This document shows positions 2,736 through 13,913 of a stretch of 13,913 bases of DNA, piece after piece. Every line of letters starts with the position of its first letter. Position 1 is the first letter of the stretch. Source of the DNA: Candidatus Bathyarchaeia archaeon (GTDB lineage Archaea > Thermoproteota > Bathyarchaeia > Bathyarchaeales > Bathycorpusculaceae); the NCBI GenBank assembly GCA_038883775.1, contig JAVZLM010000014.1, forward strand, positions 1-13,913. Reading direction: 5' to 3'. Below the pieces are notes generated by a model. The model was not told the DNA's origin and did not search any database. It was given only the letters and a program-made list of their open reading frames with translations. The position numbers and the translations under genes were made by a program.

Positions 2736-2749
2736 GTAATAAAGGTTTT
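2736..2749 (-). promoter_or_regulatory. Putative BRE/TATA promoter of tRNA-Cys
   Basis: The minus strand reads AAAACC-TTTATTAC about 30 nt upstream of the mature tRNA 5' end. Confidence 0.45.
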
Positions 2750-3794
2750 ATTGGTTTAACCCTATTTTGTGGGATATTTCTTTATATATTTCGAGGGCTT
2801 TTTCTTCATTTTCTATGTTTTTTATTAGCATGCGTCCGCTGTTGAAAAGTGTTATTTCGTAATTTTTGTATGTGAAGACTACTGCCATTGAGGACTTTAC
2901 ACGTAATTTGAAGTTTTGCTTTATTTTTTTGTGAAGGCTTTCAAGGTTTAGTTTTGTTGGTTTTTCTGGGTTTATGTTGATCGTGTTTCTTCCGCATAGC
3001 CAGACAAGTTTTTCTCTTGGTTTTTGGGTTGCTGCTTCGCCTCGGCACGCTGGGCAGTTTTCTCTCTTGTATATATCTATTGTTGTGATGTACATGTCGC
3101 TAAAGTCGCATATCATAAGCTTGTTTTTTAAAGGTGTACCTATTCCAGCCAAAAGTTTTATCGTTTCCATGGCTTCTATCGTCCCAATAATTCCTGGAGT
3201 TGCCCCTAAAACCCCTCTAACATCGCATGTTAGGAGGTTGCCATCTTCAAGGTTTGGTAAGACGCATTCTAAGCATGGAGTTTCAGGCGGAGCGAAAACT
3301 GAGAGGTTGCCTTCCATTCCTATGGCGGCTCCGAAAACATATGGGATTTTAAGTTTTATGCAAGTGCGATTGACGATATAACGTGTGCGCATGTTGTCTA
3401 AGCCGTCAACAACGCAGTCAACGCCCTTCAGCAGTTTTTCGGCGTTGTTCACATTCAAGTTTTCAGGCACAGCCTCAACTTTAACAAAAGGACTTATTCC
3501 CATAAGTCTCTTTGCTGAAACCTCAGCTTTTGGATACTGCAAATCCCTTGGTGTGTATAAGACTTGTCTGTGAAGATTGTGAGGTTCCACGGTGTCTTGA
3601 TCTATTAGGCGTAGGTAGCCAACGCCAGCAAGCGTCAAATATAGCGATGCAACCGTTCCAAGTCCGCCAAGCCCGACAACAGCAACATTTGCCCTTGCAA
3701 GCCTCTTCTGCCCTTCACGTCCAAGCTCTCTCATGACAAGTTGGCGGCTGTAAAATTCTTCGTATGAGATTCTTGGTTTTCGCGTTTTTGACAT
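2748..3794 (-). CDS. ThiF/MoeB/HesA (E1-like) adenylyltransferase with a C-terminal Cys-containing TBP-like domain
   Basis: YSRQ arginine finger, GLGGLG, DxDxVExxNLHRQ, two Zn-binding pairs (CLEC, CPAC), active-site-loop Cys in TCDVRGVLG, and a ~90-aa tail starting near LCGRNT. Start is ATG 3794 or 3809. Confidence 0.92.
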   Translation of the reverse strand: MSKTRKPRISYEEFYSRQLVMRELGREGQKRLARANVAVVGLGGLGTVASLYLTLAGVGYLRLIDQDTVEPHNLHRQVLYTPRDLQYPKAEVSAKRLMGISPFVKVEAVPENLNVNNAEKLLKGVDCVVDGLDNMRTRYIVNRTCIKLKIPYVFGAAIGMEGNLSVFAPPETPCLECVLPNLEDGNLLTCDVRGVLGATPGIIGTIEAMETIKLLAGIGTPLKNKLMICDFSDMYITTIDIYKRENCPACRGEAATQKPREKLVWLCGRNTININPEKPTKLNLESLHKKIKQNFKLRVKSSMAVVFTYKNYEITLFNSGRMLIKNIENEEKALEIYKEISHKIGLNQ

Positions 3795-3821
3795 TTCAAA
3801 TCTTCCCATTTAGGACGCATA

Positions 3822-9839: not shown

Positions 9840-10859
9840 TTATCCTTTATGCCTTGTTAATGCCAACCATAAGTGGTCACATTTTGGACGCGGAAGACTA
9901 GCTAAACGTTTATTTTTGCGAACCATTACACGCGTTTTTGAATCGGCCAAAAACTCGCCTATTACGGACGCCTCAATTTTTTCTTCCCTCAATTTTTTGG
10001 TTATGCATTCTACGTGTTCGGGTTTTGCCGCAATAAGCATGGCTCCAGAGCTTATTAGCTGCAATGGGTCTATCCTTAAAAGCCTACAGATTTCCGCAGT
10101 TTCGTCTGCCACCGGAATGTTCTCTTCAAAAACTTTAACGCCCAAGTTTGAGGCGTCTGCCATTTCGTGAATGCCTCCGATGACGCCGCCTTCCGTCGGG
10201 TCATGCATGGCATTTACTCCGCCAGTTTTGAAGGCCGCTATGCCATCTTTGACCACACTTATTTTCTCAAAAAACTTCTGTGCAGACCTTAAAAGCTCGC
10301 CATCAGCGCCCATATTTAGAAGAAGACTATAGCGTTCGGTTGCAAGTATGGCTGTCCCCTCTATGCCAGCACTTTTTGTCAAGATCAATTTATCTCCAGG
10401 TTTTGCTCCACCGGCAGTGACATAGCGCCCTTTTTCCGCTATTCCCAAAGCACATCCTATGACAACAGGATTTGTAAGCCCAGGTGTTACTTCGCAGTGT
10501 CCTCCAACAATTGCCATTTTTAAATCCTTTGCAGCGGCATCCATTTGGGAACATATAACCTCAACAGTTTCCCAATCAGCTTTTTCTGGAAGCAATATGC
10601 ACGAAAGGAAGAAGATTGGTTCCACACCAAAAGTGGCAACATCATTCGCATTAACGTTAACTGCAAGCCAGCCGATACGCTCAACAGCGCCTGTAATGGG
10701 ATCCATTGAAGCCACTAGGGATTTTTCATCTAAATCGATAACTGCACCGTCAAAACCGGCTGAAGGGCCGAGAACAACTTCCGCCCGTTTAAATCCCAAA
10801 TTTTTAAAGACAATTTCTGTAAGTATTTCAACAGGGATTTTTCCCATGGGCAACTTCAT
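9840..10859 (-). CDS. AIR-synthase-related (PurM/HypE/ThiL/SelD-fold) protein; not a canonical HypE
   Basis: GK start motif, DGAVI, DPITG, NANDVA, IVGGHCEVT, AKPGDKLILTK, MHDPTEGG. It lacks the C-terminal PR(I/V)C-COOH of HypE and ends PRPKCDHLWLALTRHKG. Confidence 0.88.
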   Translation of the reverse strand: MKLPMGKIPVEILTEIVFKNLGFKRAEVVLGPSAGFDGAVIDLDEKSLVASMDPITGAVERIGWLAVNVNANDVATFGVEPIFFLSCILLPEKADWETVEVICSQMDAAAKDLKMAIVGGHCEVTPGLTNPVVIGCALGIAEKGRYVTAGGAKPGDKLILTKSAGIEGTAILATERYSLLLNMGADGELLRSAQKFFEKISVVKDGIAAFKTGGVNAMHDPTEGGVIGGIHEMADASNLGVKVFEENIPVADETAEICRLLRIDPLQLISSGAMLIAAKPEHVECITKKLREEKIEASVIGEFLADSKTRVMVRKNKRLASLPRPKCDHLWLALTRHKG

Positions 10860-10882: not shown

Positions 10883-11602
10883 TTAGATCTTAAATATCCT
10901 TTGTGCATTTTGCTCCAAAATCATATCAAGCTGCTTTTTTGTTAAACCAGCAACTTCAACTTTTTTAATTTCAAAGGCAGGGTGGCCGAAGGGCATATCA
11001 GACCCGTAAATGACTCTGTTCTCGCCGATTTTTAAAACAGCCTCCTTTATTTTACTATGCATAGGCATCGCGGATGTTTCTAGTATGATGTTTTCATGTT
11101 TTTGTGCAACTTCTATGGCTCCGTTAATGTAAACTATATGCCCATGACCCATGTGGCCCAAAATAATTGGAACATCGGGGTACACATCAGCTAAGTTTCC
11201 AAAGTGCCATGGCAAAGACCATGGTGGATGACCGCAATGGAAAAGGACTGGCACCTTATATTTACGGGCTTGATCCATTATAGGATAAACTATGTCCTGA
11301 TCCGGCAAGTACGCGTTAAGTAAGGGGTGCATCTTTATCCCTCTGAAACCCCATCTGTTAACTGCTTTGTCTATTAGTTTCACAGCGTCTTCGCCGTAGT
11401 AGGGGTTGACCCAGACAAGGCCCACGAGTTTCTCTGGATATAAATTAACTGCGTTTTGGGTCAATTGATTTGGTAAAGAAAAGACTATACACTTTTTTAT
11501 GTTGCATTCATCCATAATACGCAGCATTCCTTTAACATCTAATTCAACGTTGAAAACTGGGAATTTGCCAAGATGAGTGTGGGAGTCTATAACCACAATC
11601 AA
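10883..11602 (-). CDS. Metal-dependent amidohydrolase superfamily protein (Amidohydro_2/TIM barrel)
   Basis: IDSHTH (HxH), GIKMHP, LFHCG, LGHMG, YGSDMPF. SD-like GGAGAGG immediately upstream favours TTG 11602 or GTG 11596; ATG 11635 is also possible. Confidence 0.92.
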   Translation of the reverse strand: MIVVIDSHTHLGKFPVFNVELDVKGMLRIMDECNIKKCIVFSLPNQLTQNAVNLYPEKLVGLVWVNPYYGEDAVKLIDKAVNRWGFRGIKMHPLLNAYLPDQDIVYPIMDQARKYKVPVLFHCGHPPWSLPWHFGNLADVYPDVPIILGHMGHGHIVYINGAIEVAQKHENIILETSAMPMHSKIKEAVLKIGENRVIYGSDMPFGHPAFEIKKVEVAGLTKKQLDMILEQNAQRIFKI

Positions 11603-11639
11603 TCCTCTCCACACATTTAACCCAGTTTTGGGCATTAAC

Positions 11640-12179
11640 TTATAGCAAGTATTCTATTTTTAGTGATCGCCTTAATATTAACAAAATTGGCACCGTCACG
11701 ACGATGTCTATAGCGCTTAGAGGGAAAAATGTGATTAGATCTAAATACGCTACAGGACCAAACAAAAAGTAATCGTAAAGAAAATAACCCACGTTTTTCT
11801 CGATTGCGGCGAAAACCATTGCTAGAAGTTCGGAACGTCTCGGTTGTGTTGAAAATAAGCGCCTTAAACTGCCCAGCAGAAAACCCATAAAACCGCGAAT
11901 AACTATTGTTGCTGGAGCCCACTGTATAAAACTACTACCCCATAGGGGATTCCATATGTCGAAGAGCATAGCACCAACACCACATGCAAATGATCCTACA
12001 AGAGGCCCGCAAAGGATGGCTGCTATAAAAGATGCAATGTCTCCCAAATGCCAAACCCCTAAAGGTTTGGGCATAGGAACAGATATGGCTGTCATGGCGT
12101 AAACAAGTGCTGTCATGACACCCATAGTTGCTATAACTTTTGAAGGTGACACGTTTACATGGAATGCTCTTGTGTTCAC
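11640..12179 (-). CDS. ECF transporter substrate-binding S component (HmpT/PdxU-like)
   Basis: 179 aa, about 6 hydrophobic segments. The pattern ALV...T...VP.P..G..HLGD...F.AA.L.GP..G..A.GVG..L.D....WAP.T.VI.G.MG resembles HmpT/PdxU-type S components as I recall them. The substrate is not proven. Confidence 0.85.
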   Translation of the reverse strand: MNTRAFHVNVSPSKVIATMGVMTALVYAMTAISVPMPKPLGVWHLGDIASFIAAILCGPLVGSFACGVGAMLFDIWNPLWGSSFIQWAPATIVIRGFMGFLLGSLRRLFSTQPRRSELLAMVFAAIEKNVGYFLYDYFLFGPVAYLDLITFFPLSAIDIVVTVPILLILRRSLKIEYLL

Positions 12180-12202
12180 GTTTTACCCCTTCGTATAGAT
12201 TT

Positions 12203-12236
12203 AGTTAAGGTATAACTTTACTATATAAAATTTAGC
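12203..12236 (-). promoter_or_regulatory. Putative promoter (TATA) and candidate operator upstream of the ECF S gene
   Basis: Minus-strand TTTATATA at 12229-12222 preceded by GCTAAA. Inverted repeat AGTTA-N5-TAACT at 12203-12217 just downstream. SD-like AAGGGG before GTG 12179. Confidence 0.5.
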
Positions 12237-12268: not shown

Positions 12269-13672
12269 TCACAACAAGAGTTTTAAGTCATCAAGCGCTG
12301 TCAAAACTTTTCTCCCACGCCTCGTTATTCTGTAGTGTTTTCTCCCATTTTTTATGAAGCTCACCACTAACCCTCTTTGGTACAGTTCATTTAGGTGCTG
12401 GTATATGGCTACTCTTGTCATTGTTTTTCCGAGTTTTTTCCATAAATCATAGCCGTAAGTGTCCTTTTCACACAAGATCTTAAGTATTTTCGCTTTTGTA
12501 CTTAACTCTAATCCAATAACCGCTGTTTTCTTTTTCTTTGTTAAGGCTTGAAGGATGTCTGTTGCTTTTAGACCGCTTCCAGTTATTAAGCATACAACCT
12601 TGTCCTTTTTGTCGATAACTCGCTCATTCATAAGCTTTTTTAGCGCTGCGTATGTTGCTGCGCTTGCTGGTTCGGCGAAGACGCCTTCATGTTTGGCGAT
12701 TTCCTGTTCTGCTGAAAAGATTTCTTCGTCTGAAACTGATGTAGCGATTCCTTGGGATTCTTTTATGGCTTTAAGGGCTAGTTTGCCATACCAGGGGTTT
12801 TTAACGAGGATGGCGAGTGCCCGGGTTGAAGGTTTTGCTGTGAAGGCTAGCTCATGAATTTTTTGCGTGTACGCTTTCACAATTGGTGAGCATCCTTCGG
12901 CTTGGACGCCGATCATCTTTGGAACGGATTTTACCTCGCCTTTTATTTCAAGTTCTTTGAAGCCTTTCCAAACGGCATATAATGTTCCGCCACTCCCCAT
13001 GGGGGCTATAAACCAGTCTGGAGCCTCCATTTGTTCGTAAACTTCATAGGCTATGGTTTTTAGGGCTTCTATGGATAGTGGATTAAACTCTGCGGACCCT
13101 TGATACCATCTCATTTCTTTAGCTAACTCATCCGCTCTTTTCAATGAATCATCCACTATTTCACCGTGCTCCTCGATTATAGCATCATAGATGAGCATTT
13201 GGGCAAGTTTTCCCATGTCCACGTTTCTCGGCACCACAACATGGCATGCTAATCCGGACTTTGCACAGTATGCAGCCAAAGAGGCACCAAGGTTTCCATT
13301 TGTAGCACAGACAAGCGACTTATACCCTAAATCTACAGCGTTGGAAACCATTAGGGCAGCGCATCTATCCCTAAAAGAATTTGTTGGGTTTCGCGTCTCG
13401 TCTTTGAAGTATAAATTGTTTAGCCCAACGCTTTCGGCAAGTCTCCACGCCTTTATGAGCGAGGTTCCGCCTTCCCCCATTGAAACAACATTCCTAACCG
13501 CTGGCAAAAATTTCCTGTAACGCCAAAAAGTGAAGGAACCGACAAATTTCTCAGTTTTAAGCACTTCATCGTCACATTTATACTCTAGAATGCTGCCACA
13601 TTTCTTGCAACTATATCGTGGCGGATAAGCTTCAAACTTTGCACCACACGTTGTGCACGTCAGATAGAACAT
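12269..13672 (-). CDS. Threonine-synthase-like (PLP fold type II) protein lacking the catalytic Lys, fused to a C-terminal PadR-type winged helix-turn-helix
   Basis: N-terminal Zn ribbon (CTTC/CKKC), SMGEGGT, NPTNSFRDR (canonical NPTGSFKDR), GVQAEGCSP, EGVFAEPASA, LITGSGLK. Then ILKILCEKDTYGYDLWKKL...AIYQHLNELYQRGLV...RKHYRITRRGRKVL, the PadR pattern. Start is GTG 13675 or ATG 13672. Confidence 0.88.
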   Translation of the reverse strand: MFYLTCTTCGAKFEAYPPRYSCKKCGSILEYKCDDEVLKTEKFVGSFTFWRYRKFLPAVRNVVSMGEGGTSLIKAWRLAESVGLNNLYFKDETRNPTNSFRDRCAALMVSNAVDLGYKSLVCATNGNLGASLAAYCAKSGLACHVVVPRNVDMGKLAQMLIYDAIIEEHGEIVDDSLKRADELAKEMRWYQGSAEFNPLSIEALKTIAYEVYEQMEAPDWFIAPMGSGGTLYAVWKGFKELEIKGEVKSVPKMIGVQAEGCSPIVKAYTQKIHELAFTAKPSTRALAILVKNPWYGKLALKAIKESQGIATSVSDEEIFSAEQEIAKHEGVFAEPASAATYAALKKLMNERVIDKKDKVVCLITGSGLKATDILQALTKKKKTAVIGLELSTKAKILKILCEKDTYGYDLWKKLGKTMTRVAIYQHLNELYQRGLVVSFIKNGRKHYRITRRGRKVLTALDDLKLLL

Positions 13673-13747
13673 CACGCTGCCTCGTTTTCCCTTTTCCTAA
13701 ACGTTAAATTCAGCAGTCCCATCTATGAGGCTTTCTGAATTCTAGGT

Positions 13748-13912
13748 TTAAGGCTCCAAGCTTGGAAGTATTGCAATTACCTCCGCAACTCGCTTTACAA
13801 TTATCCGGTCAAATTTGACATCGTTTTCTATATTAACCAGCGGACCGATTCCATGCTGTTCGTTTTTAATATTTCTTGGGTTTGCATCCTTTGGCTTTTC
13901 CAACATTATGAA
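13748..13912 (-). CDS. C-terminal end of a hypothetical protein (truncated by window edge)
   Basis: Open frame FIMLEKPKDANPRNIKNEQHGIGPLVNIENDVKFDRIIVKRVAEVIAILPSLEP* ending in TAA at 13750-13748. No recognisable motif. Confidence 0.5.
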   Translation of the reverse strand, partial: FIMLEKPKDANPRNIKNEQHGIGPLVNIENDVKFDRIIVKRVAEVIAILPSLEP

Positions 13913-13913
13913 T

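Follow-up and report, generated by a model that had tools for sequence, protein, structure and literature searches.

A threonine synthase-like protein of Bathyarchaeia with an arginine in place of the Schiff-base lysine and a PadR-type winged helix: a candidate regulator of vitamin B6 genes

The stretch of DNA analyzed here (the window) comprises 13,913 nucleotides (nt), positions 1 to 13,913 of contig JAVZLM010000014.1 in the Candidatus Bathyarchaeia archaeon assembly GCA_038883775.1. Near its right-hand end, a minus-strand gene encodes a protein, called the fusion below, in which a threonine synthase (ThrC)-like domain is joined to a PadR-type winged helix-turn-helix (wHTH). The fusion is probably not a threonine synthase. 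It is more likely a one-component repressor of vitamin B6 uptake or synthesis genes, the ThrC-like domain of which would act as a non-covalent sensor of a B6 vitamer. The gene and the parts of its product are as follows.

12269-13675, minus strand: open reading frame (ORF) of the ThrC-like/PadR fusion, 468 amino acids (aa) from GTG 13675, stop codon at 12269-12271
13598-13657, minus strand: N-terminal Zn ribbon with Cys7, Cys10, Cys23 and Cys26 (translation)
12578-13486, minus strand: ThrC-like fold-type-II pyridoxal phosphate (PLP) domain, PALP, residues 64-366 (PF00291, 2.1e-74; ThrC structures)
13370-13372, minus strand: AGG codon of Arg102 at the position of the PLP Schiff-base Lys (translation, homologue alignments)
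12509-12538, minus strand: basic flexible linker, residues 380-389, including TKKKKT (translation; predicted local distance difference test, pLDDT, below 50)
12272-12502, minus strand: PadR-type wHTH and C-terminal helix, residues 392-468 (PF03551; AlphaFold2 secondary structure; structure search)

The whole gene translates as a single open frame. ATG 13672 is more likely to be the start than GTG 13675, since most homologues have 467 aa, the length that this start would give. Four-Cys Zn ribbon, fold-type-II PLP domain, basic linker and PadR-type winged helix follow one another in this order. Pfam detects only two domains, namely PALP and PadR, the latter at residues 397-459 (8.1e-12, 45.4 bits against a cut-off of 27). 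The AlphaFold2 model, for which 79 family members were aligned, reaches a mean pLDDT of 93.1 and a predicted template modeling score (pTM) of 0.82, with values below 50 confined to the linker. In the structure search, the N-terminal part matched the threonine synthases 2zsj, 6nmx and 1v7c (TMt 0.85-0.88) as well as 2d1f (Z 42.6). Residues 391-468 matched the PadR regulator 5dym (Z 13.5, rmsd 1.6 Å over 78 residues), and the B. subtilis PadR-operator complex 5x11 was also recovered for the wHTH (Z 12.3). No solved chain in this search spanned both parts. The first-pass annotation, made from the letters of the DNA, had described an in-frame linker leading into a complete PadR-like wHTH, a description that Pfam, the model and the structure search all confirm.

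The fusion is 36-38% identical to solved ThrCs. Among the NCBIfam models, it scores above the cut-off of TIGR00260 thrC (218.8 against 167.1) and below those of PRK05638 (400.2 against 421) and PRK08197 (289.7 against 303). The curated model NF004170/PRK05638, named "threonine synthase" and 442 positions long, aligns with residues 5-461. The two-domain form is already present in the databases, since this model extends across both domains, and the architecture is therefore not an unseen one.

A prediction with two copies of the protein scored 0.77, and the best of three controls scored 0.00. Among proteins solved as same-chain pairs, 20 of 30 reach this mark, as does 1 of 23 among those solved as single chains. 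Agreement between the runs extends to at least 62% of the contacts, and the partner pLDDT is 85 or higher. The confident interface is formed by the ThrC-like domain (residues 47-164 and 324-375), not by the wHTH. This predicted dimer may reflect the likeness to solved ThrC dimers and would say little on the placement of the wHTH.

The codon at 13372-13370 reads AGG and places Arg102, within the string NPTNSFRDR, where ThrC enzymes carry the Schiff-base Lys. This had been the central claim of the first-pass annotation, and the translation and the codon read bear it out. AAG and AGG differ by a single transition, and the Arg codon could in principle stem from faulty sequencing or assembly, or from a private mutation of a thrC gene in decay. 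Such an origin can practically be dismissed. In the query and its 120 best homologues (64-85% identical to the query, all with PALP and PadR), the position is occupied by Arg in 118 sequences, Ser in two and Met in one, and by Lys in none of the 121. Wherever the source names these homologues, they are called threonine synthase of Bathyarchaeia, the label that had been foreseen for automatic pipelines. In the related metagenome loci (n = 80, with the fusion ORF parsed in all except L104 and L123), Arg is found in 77 of the 78 parsed ORFs and Ser in one. Five different codons encode this Arg (AGA 36, AGG 25, CGA 14, CGT 1 and CGG 1, next to a single AGT). Together, the two counts rule out the error and the private mutation. 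Contigs of four runs from two studies span the codon, and none of the differences listed for them lies at 13370-13372; one of the runs may be the window's source sample. The fusion ORF is intact and strongly conserved. Arg has been maintained through synonymous change in both the AGR and the CGN codon families, which points to selection for Arg.

Throughout the family, loss of the Lys accompanies the fused architecture; whether the K-to-R exchange is specific to the fusions was a check that the first-pass annotation had asked for. A search of 201 Thermoproteota genomes returned loci from which 30 fused ORFs were cut; they are 33-65% identical to the query (the window's own copy apart), and all 30 have Arg at the site. 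The one unfused neighbor gene in these loci has Lys and canonical ThrC motifs. Some of the 30 score about 700 bits against PRK05638, so this model, despite its name, appears to describe Lys-less proteins. When the family was reduced to representatives of 50%-identity clusters (151 rows), the C-terminal part aligned to the wHTH in 80 rows and was missing in 71. Lys occupies the site in 69 of the 71 rows without the wHTH, compared with 6 of the 80 with it. The residues in the latter are Leu (20), Arg (16), Ile (14), Lys (6), Val (5), Thr (5), Met (4) and Phe (3), followed by one each of Ser, Asn, Ala, Tyr and His, and two gaps. Four of the six Lys-bearing rows (P0221, P0237, P0267 and P0268) are proteins of a different architecture, 614-622 aa long, in which a long and different C-terminal extension partly aligns to the wHTH columns.

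Of the columns with at least 80% conservation in 69 unfused, Lys-bearing relatives, that of the Schiff-base Lys alone drops below 30% in 74 fused proteins. The surroundings of the site are kept in the fused proteins (N96, P97, T98, S100, F101, D103 and R104), as are G127, N128, the Gly-rich loop with G227 and G229, E335, T365, G368 and K370. These residues presumably include those holding the PLP ring and phosphate. The Zn-ribbon Cys are retained in 85-89% of the fused and 84-88% of the unfused relatives. Other motif deviations had also been put forward as signs of a dead enzyme. The strings themselves are present (CATNGNL, FNPLSIEALKT and APMGSGGT, alongside GEGGT, EPASA, TGSGLK, CxxC...CxxC and TKKKKT), but the deviations among them are not specific to the fusions. 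Those at the NPxR Arg, ASTGNT and GNAGN were rejected as diagnostic because they vary in the nearest unfused, Lys-bearing relatives too.

A FastTree tree of the 151 rows groups the fused proteins in a single clade (76 rows, support 88, not starred). It contains two starred subclades, i.e., the Arg clade, with 25 rows including the window protein, and a group of 50 rows with Leu, Ile, Val, Met and similar residues. The recognition helix (...Y-Q-H-L...) is nearly invariant in both. The tree suggests a single origin of the fused proteins across Thermoproteota.

The organism does not depend on the fusion for a candidate threonine synthase. Its assembly (1.69 Mb in 28 contigs, 91% complete, 5.12% contamination) contains 11 PALP matches. 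Two are fusions, both with Arg, namely the window copy and one at C4:167614-169020. Four are Lys-bearing ThrC-type genes (on contigs C7, C6, C18 and C2), two are CysK-like and three TrpB-like. The C7, C6 and C18 proteins pass thrC cut-offs (PRK06450, 446.5 against 301; PRK08197, 503.5 against 303; TIGR00260, 213.8 against 167.1). A separate Lys-bearing thrC, which the reading as a pseudoenzyme calls for, is present. The genes at C18:6725-8062 and C2:164275-165561 are near-identical and both lie next to an arginase-family gene; this pair reflects either a duplication or a strain mix in the bin.

The predicted target of the fusion lies directly downstream, behind a candidate operator.

12222-12230, minus strand: TATA-like box TTTTATATA abutting the palindrome (position read by eye; same arrangement in related loci)
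12202-12223, no strand assigned: candidate operator, on the minus strand TAGTAAAGTT-AT-ACCTTAACTA, a degenerate copy of TAGTATAGTT-NN-AACTATACTA
11640-12179, minus strand: S-component of energy-coupling factor (ECF) type, PF07155 (PdxU/PdxU2 family), divergent copy of 179 aa (1.4e-19, 71.2 bits, cut-off 26.7)

The S-component gene starts 89 nt downstream of the fusion on the same strand. A PF07155 S-component adjoins the fusion in 64 of the 78 parsed metagenome loci, and five of the 14 loci lacking it have less than 200 nt of downstream sequence. The S-component cluster also adjoins the fusion in 27 of 41 genome loci. In the Arg-clade loci of this set, it follows the fusion immediately on the same strand; in those of the other clade, the orientation is mostly divergent. 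The S-components of relatives score 91-115 bits to PF07155. A profile built from 13 of them recovered one solved chain at E<=1e-4, 4hzu_S (1.3e-17), which is HmpT/PdxU2 of L. brevis. According to passages of PMC4860826, HmpT was first predicted to carry hydroxymethylpyrimidine, and pyridoxamine was extracted from it and reported as its substrate. A passage of PMC9997740 counts PdxU and PdxU2/HmpT, both of PF07155, among only three characterized prokaryotic B6 transporters and calls B6 transporters a poorly studied class. Four of six conserved HmpT residues (E41, Y120, N140 and Q143) match the consensus of the archaeal S-components; opposite the other two, H84 and Q87, the consensus has Lys and Glu. 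An insert of about 70 residues is present in many archaeal copies.

In other lineages, B6 synthesis genes stand at this place. The gene pdxJ (PF03740, 4.5e-97 for L109) replaces the S-component behind the same palindrome in L108, L109, L125, L135 and L144, and it is convergent just downstream of the fusion in L105 and L118. On the Bathyarchaeia-like contigs of the former group (L109:5477-6921, for instance), the gene after pdxJ encodes a protein of 226 aa that weakly matches a TIM-barrel family (His_biosynth). The five PdxS-bearing genomes of genus g25 all carry pdxS-pdxT in divergent orientation to the fusion, the two start codons lying 61-64 bp apart; two g25 genomes without PdxS keep the fusion and the synteny without pdxST. 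As close kin, the five genomes represent a single observation of synteny. Three genomes of family f10 (L039:8032-12788, L040 and L046) show a row composed of an Lrp/AsnC gene, the fusion, the S-component, a fused double ATP-binding cassette (ABC) ATPase and a 248-aa protein without a Pfam match, possibly the T component. It amounts to a complete, dedicated operon for an ECF transporter and includes two regulator genes.

The window's own genome yields no match to PdxS, PdxJ or PdxA at 91% completeness. It contains one EcfT-type gene and one strong match to the ThiD/PdxK kinase family. In a hand count over the 201 Thermoproteota genomes, 66 have a full-length fused match and 135 do not; PdxS is present in 10 of the former and 81 of the latter. 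The 66 are those among the matches listed, and low-scoring members may be missed (139 unlisted matches). PdxJ is present in one of the 201 (G125).

The candidate operator of the window lies 22 nt ahead of the S-component gene. It has four mismatches to the strict form of the family palindrome and two to TAGTAWAGTT-NN-AACTWTACTA. Judging from its position, the TATA-like box that abuts it is likely the promoter of the S-component operon. Relative to the window, contigs of related runs lack 1 nt at 12199 and carry substitutions at 12186 and 12229, the latter in the TATA-like box; inside the palindrome, no difference is listed. For RNA, no dataset was listed that covers this stretch. In the Arg clade (Bathyarchaeia), TAGTATAGTT-NN-AACTATACTA forms a perfect inverted repeat of 22 bp directly behind a TATA-like TTTAAAT/TTAAAAT box and 8-40 nt ahead of the next gene's start, be it an S-component gene or pdxJ. 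Archaeal repressors typically act between the TATA box and the start. A scan that allowed up to four mismatches in the 20 specified positions found a single match, with at most three mismatches, in 72 of the 80 metagenome loci. In these 72 loci, the match always lies past the fusion stop, between the fusion and the next gene. The other eight are L116 and L156, without downstream sequence; L105 and L118, with the convergent pdxJ; the unparsed L104 and L123; and L085 and L086. In the last two (L085:5408-5500), just the left half of the palindrome (TAGTATAGCC...) remains and the S-component gene is missing, which looks like a deletion of the target gene. Nine of 20 genome loci, all of Bathyarchaeia, contain the repeat as well; the strict form was not found in the 11 loci of more distant lineages (L039-L042, L045-L047, L053, L054, L057 and L058).

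The only exact copy of the palindrome in the window's own genome is at C4:167574-167595, in the gap that separates the second fusion from its S-component. All sites beyond this one and the window's have at least five mismatches, the level of a reversed-pattern control. The genome thus has two cassettes of fusion, palindrome and S-component: the C4 cassette (minus strand), with the exact palindrome and a 303-aa S-component, and that of the window, with the degenerate palindrome and the divergent 179-aa S-component. They may be diverged paralogues of different specificity or may stem from two organisms in one bin.

Related elements were found farther away. In three distant f10 genomes, the core TAAAGT-N4-ACTTTA is embedded in a longer palindrome at the same intergenic position. 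The sister clade has a different palindrome, CCTATATATAGG, located 6-7 nt after a ATATATAAG box and 3-25 nt ahead of the start of the fusion itself. In 10 of 19 loci, a copy with at most two mismatches lies no more than 30 nt from the called start; one further locus has an exact copy at -96, and three loci probably have miscalled starts. The exact 12-mer was found once per genome in five of five genomes from three families, always at the fusion start, and matches with one mismatch are about as frequent as in the control. A CTATA/TATAG core is common to the motifs of both clades.

Both flanks of the gene had been proposed as sites of DNA binding by the first-pass annotation. The downstream flank holds the candidate at 12202-12223. 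None was found upstream of the gene, where the DNA is mostly the 3' end of another ORF. Two sequences at 13676-13913, GTCAAATTTGAC and TCCAAGCTTGGA, were considered as operators and rejected, as they lie within the 3' end of this ORF and are not palindromic in relatives. Ahead of Arg-clade genes, CCTATATATAGG is not present: the best matches have two to five scattered mismatches, and two of them fall inside gatE coding sequence.

A mechanism can be proposed from these observations, in which we infer the ligand, the DNA binding and the polarity as a repressor. The fusion would dimerize via its ThrC-like domain, and two PadR-type winged helices would bind the 22-bp palindrome between the TATA-like box and the start of the next gene, thereby blocking transcription initiation. 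The controlled gene would be the PdxU/PdxU2-family S-component here and in most relatives, and pdxJ or pdxS-pdxT in others. The ThrC-like domain, with a whole pocket but without the Schiff-base Lys, would bind PLP or another B6 vitamer reversibly, owing to the loss of this Lys, and report the free pool. In its vitamer-bound form, the protein would repress the uptake or synthesis genes, and the B6 vitamer, most simply PLP, would be the co-repressor. The first-pass annotation had already read the protein as a dead ThrC domain serving as a one-component sensor, a view that is strengthened by the Lys loss, the separate thrC genes and the palindrome with its predicted target genes. It had left several ligands side by side. 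Of these, a B6 vitamer now seems best supported, because the neighbors are PdxU/PdxU2-family S-components, pdxJ and pdxST. A far wider picture can be sketched, rather unlikely as a whole: the fusion as a general B6 gauge of TACK archaea, derived from a threonine synthase in which the loss of the Lys exchanged tight cofactor binding for reversible sensing of free PLP; its small regulon as a pointer to B6 genes not yet recognized, with a conserved downstream protein related to aminoimidazole ribonucleotide synthase (AIRS) as a missing archaeal step of B6 salvage or synthesis (e.g., a vitamer kinase unrelated to PdxK); and the two cassettes as having diverged to serve different vitamers.

This AIRS-like gene and the remaining genes around the fusion are listed below.

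13748-13913, minus strand: 3' end of a small ORF upstream of the fusion and co-directional with it, cut by the contig end (recognized from relatives)
10883-11635, minus strand: Amidohydro_2 protein (Pfam), 4 nt after the S-component gene
9840-10859, minus strand: AIRS-related (PurM/ThiL/HypE-like) protein, below the HypE and ThiL cut-offs

The Amidohydro_2 gene probably belongs to the same operon as the S-component gene; its homologues were found in only 3 of the 80 related loci. The AIRS-like protein has a homologue in 57 of the 80 related metagenome loci, where it comes after the S-component or pdxJ cluster (L082:5987-7243, L095:5353-6366 and L109:7059-8078, for instance). It may be part of B6 metabolism. 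ThiL is its second-best family, with 97 bits against a cut-off of 184. In relatives, the small upstream ORF encodes a conserved protein of 83 aa without a Pfam match (L082:3677-3928); it comes after a family-2 glycosyltransferase gene and directly before the fusion, on the same strand.

Several observations weigh against a role of the fusion as a B6 repressor. The S-component of the window lacks the last-helix Asn and Gln that align with HmpT N140 and Q143, and the operator ahead of it is degenerate, with four mismatches. The window paralogue may therefore have shifted its specificity. PF07155 is named for riboflavin S-components, and membership in the family leaves the substrate unfixed. In 14 of the 41 genome loci there is no nearby S-component, and in five of these 14 the fusion comes after gatD-gatE. 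In these five loci (L042, L045, L054, L057 and L058, from families f16 and f21), the fusion lies behind gatD-gatE on the same strand, almost without a gap, and no palindrome was found. In L049, the fusion has a true thrC as its divergent neighbor, and such a gene is close by in L044, L047 and L056, an adjacency that would fit a threonine link. The pdxJ gene of G125 has no palindrome in the 126 nt upstream of it, which reach to the contig end. The contrast in PdxS content is one between related genomes, with kinship ignored, and is suggestive only. The fused clade has a support of just 88 in the tree, which bears on the proposed single origin. Finally, Lys is kept in two fused clusters, P0123 (470 aa, a cluster of 62, labeled Bathyarchaeota) and P0127 (475 aa, labeled Lokiarchaeota). 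Both are nested in the Arg clade. Their Lys may be a reversion by one transition, and these proteins may bind PLP covalently.

The strongest rival keeps the transcription factor and exchanges its effector for a metabolite of the threonine pathway or of amino acids, with the S-component importing that compound or a precursor of it. O-phosphohomoserine, threonine, 4-phosphohydroxythreonine and an external aldimine of PLP and an amino acid, trapped for want of the Lys, are candidates. The conservation of the whole ThrC substrate and cofactor pocket save the Lys would suit such an effector, as would the thrC neighbors just mentioned and the Lrp/AsnC gene that precedes the fusion in the f10 genomes, a family linked to amino-acid metabolism in the abstract of PMC10201364. 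Nevertheless, the conserved partners of the fusion are B6 genes (PF07155 S-components, pdxJ and pdxST), the candidate operator stands at these genes and not at thrC, and the adjacency to thrC is confined to a few related genomes. An amino-acid or aldimine effector is therefore considered unlikely. Still more doubtful, and by and large improbable, is control of the salvage of hydroxymethylpyrimidine (the thiamine precursor) or of another vitamin, the ThrC-like domain binding that compound. The early prediction for HmpT, the only solved S-component relative, the second-best match of the conserved AIRS-like gene to ThiL and a ThiF-family gene in the window (2748-3809) can be cited for it. However, other lineages have pdxJ and pdxST at the target position, the pocket of the PLP fold is conserved, and the AIRS-like protein stays well under the ThiL cut-off.

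It is also conceivable, yet very improbable, that the fusion is still an enzyme. Threonine synthase or a related lyase could use another residue or free PLP and regulate its own gene via the DNA-binding tail, as a trigger enzyme. The score above the TIGR00260 cut-off, the retention of every pocket residue except the Lys and the two Lys-bearing fused clusters nested in the Arg clade speak for activity. Yet fold-type-II PLP enzymes need the Schiff-base Lys, and the residues that replace it (R, L, I, V, M, T, F, S, N, A, Y or H) are so diverse that no single chemistry could substitute for it. The protein, moreover, misses the PRK05638 cut-off, and the genome has its separate Lys-bearing thrC genes. 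The repression of B6 uptake and synthesis genes by a vitamer-sensing fusion thus remains the probable reading.

Full-text literature searches found neither a ThrC-/PadR-type archaeal B6 regulator nor a Lys-less threonine synthase homologue acting as a regulator. Passages of two comparative-genomics papers on PLP metabolism and its regulators mention no archaeal regulator of B6 metabolism (PMC9997740, PMC5320631), and a census of archaeal transcription factors has no occurrence of threonine, PALP, PadR or pyridoxal (PMC2872624). Most likely, the fusion is an undescribed archaeal B6 regulator. If so, thousands of archaeal "threonine synthase" proteins are misnamed (12,747 relatives were found at E<=0.001, with whole clades fused), with consequences for metabolic reconstructions of Bathyarchaeia and related groups and for predictions of B6 auxotrophy. 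The fusion would also be a clean natural case of an enzyme turned into a sensor through the loss of a single residue. Two candidate operator motifs and a defined set of predicted targets come with the family, as do candidate transporters for B6.

Each part of the system resembles something known. Like the ThrC enzymes (TIGR00260, PRK08197 and PRK05638), the fusion has a Zn ribbon, the same fold and almost every conserved residue of the pocket. It differs from them in the missing Schiff-base Lys, the additional linker and wHTH and its neighbors, which are B6 genes rather than threonine genes. The wHTH fold and C-terminal helix are those of the PadR family (B. subtilis PadR, AphA and LmrR), and a palindromic operator is expected for a dimer of this kind. 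PadR proteins are small and sense their ligands at their own dimer interface, whereas the wHTH of the fusion is appended to an enzyme-derived sensor of 380 residues. Moreover, PadR operators typically have half-sites of the ATGT/ACAT type, which those of the candidate operator (TAGTATAGTT) do not resemble. As for the neighboring S-component, it belongs to the same family, PF07155, as PdxU/PdxU2 (HmpT), and 4hzu_S is its only solved relative. It deviates from HmpT in the change of H84 and Q87 to Lys and Glu, in the insert of about 70 residues present in many copies and, in the window copy, in the missing Asn/Gln pair.

Among regulators, archaeal ThiR combines an enzyme-derived ThiN domain with a DNA-binding domain and controls thiamine genes. 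The fusion is likewise an enzyme-derived sensor joined to a DNA-binding domain beside genes of the same vitamin, with a different vitamin, sensor fold and DNA-binding family. A parallel to the proposed function is offered by the bacterial MocR/PdxR proteins (such as GabR and TauR), one-component regulators with a sensor derived from a PLP enzyme. According to passages of PMC5320631, bacterial PdxR regulons contain pdxST, pdxK and pdxU, and MocR regulators are not present in Archaea. The predicted targets of the fusion overlap with these, as they comprise pdxST, pdxJ or a PdxU/PdxU2-family S-component, partly in divergent arrangement. The kind of regulator, a PLP-enzyme-derived sensor with a helix-turn-helix that controls pdx genes, is thus already known. 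The design is another one: the MocR sensor is a fold-type-I aminotransferase domain with an N-terminal GntR helix-turn-helix, and that of the fusion is a ThrC-like fold-type-II domain without the Schiff-base Lys, with a C-terminal PadR wHTH and in an archaeal family. Since both the sensor fold and the DNA-binding domain differ, the fusion, in its proposed role, is an analogue and not a homologue of bacterial PdxR.

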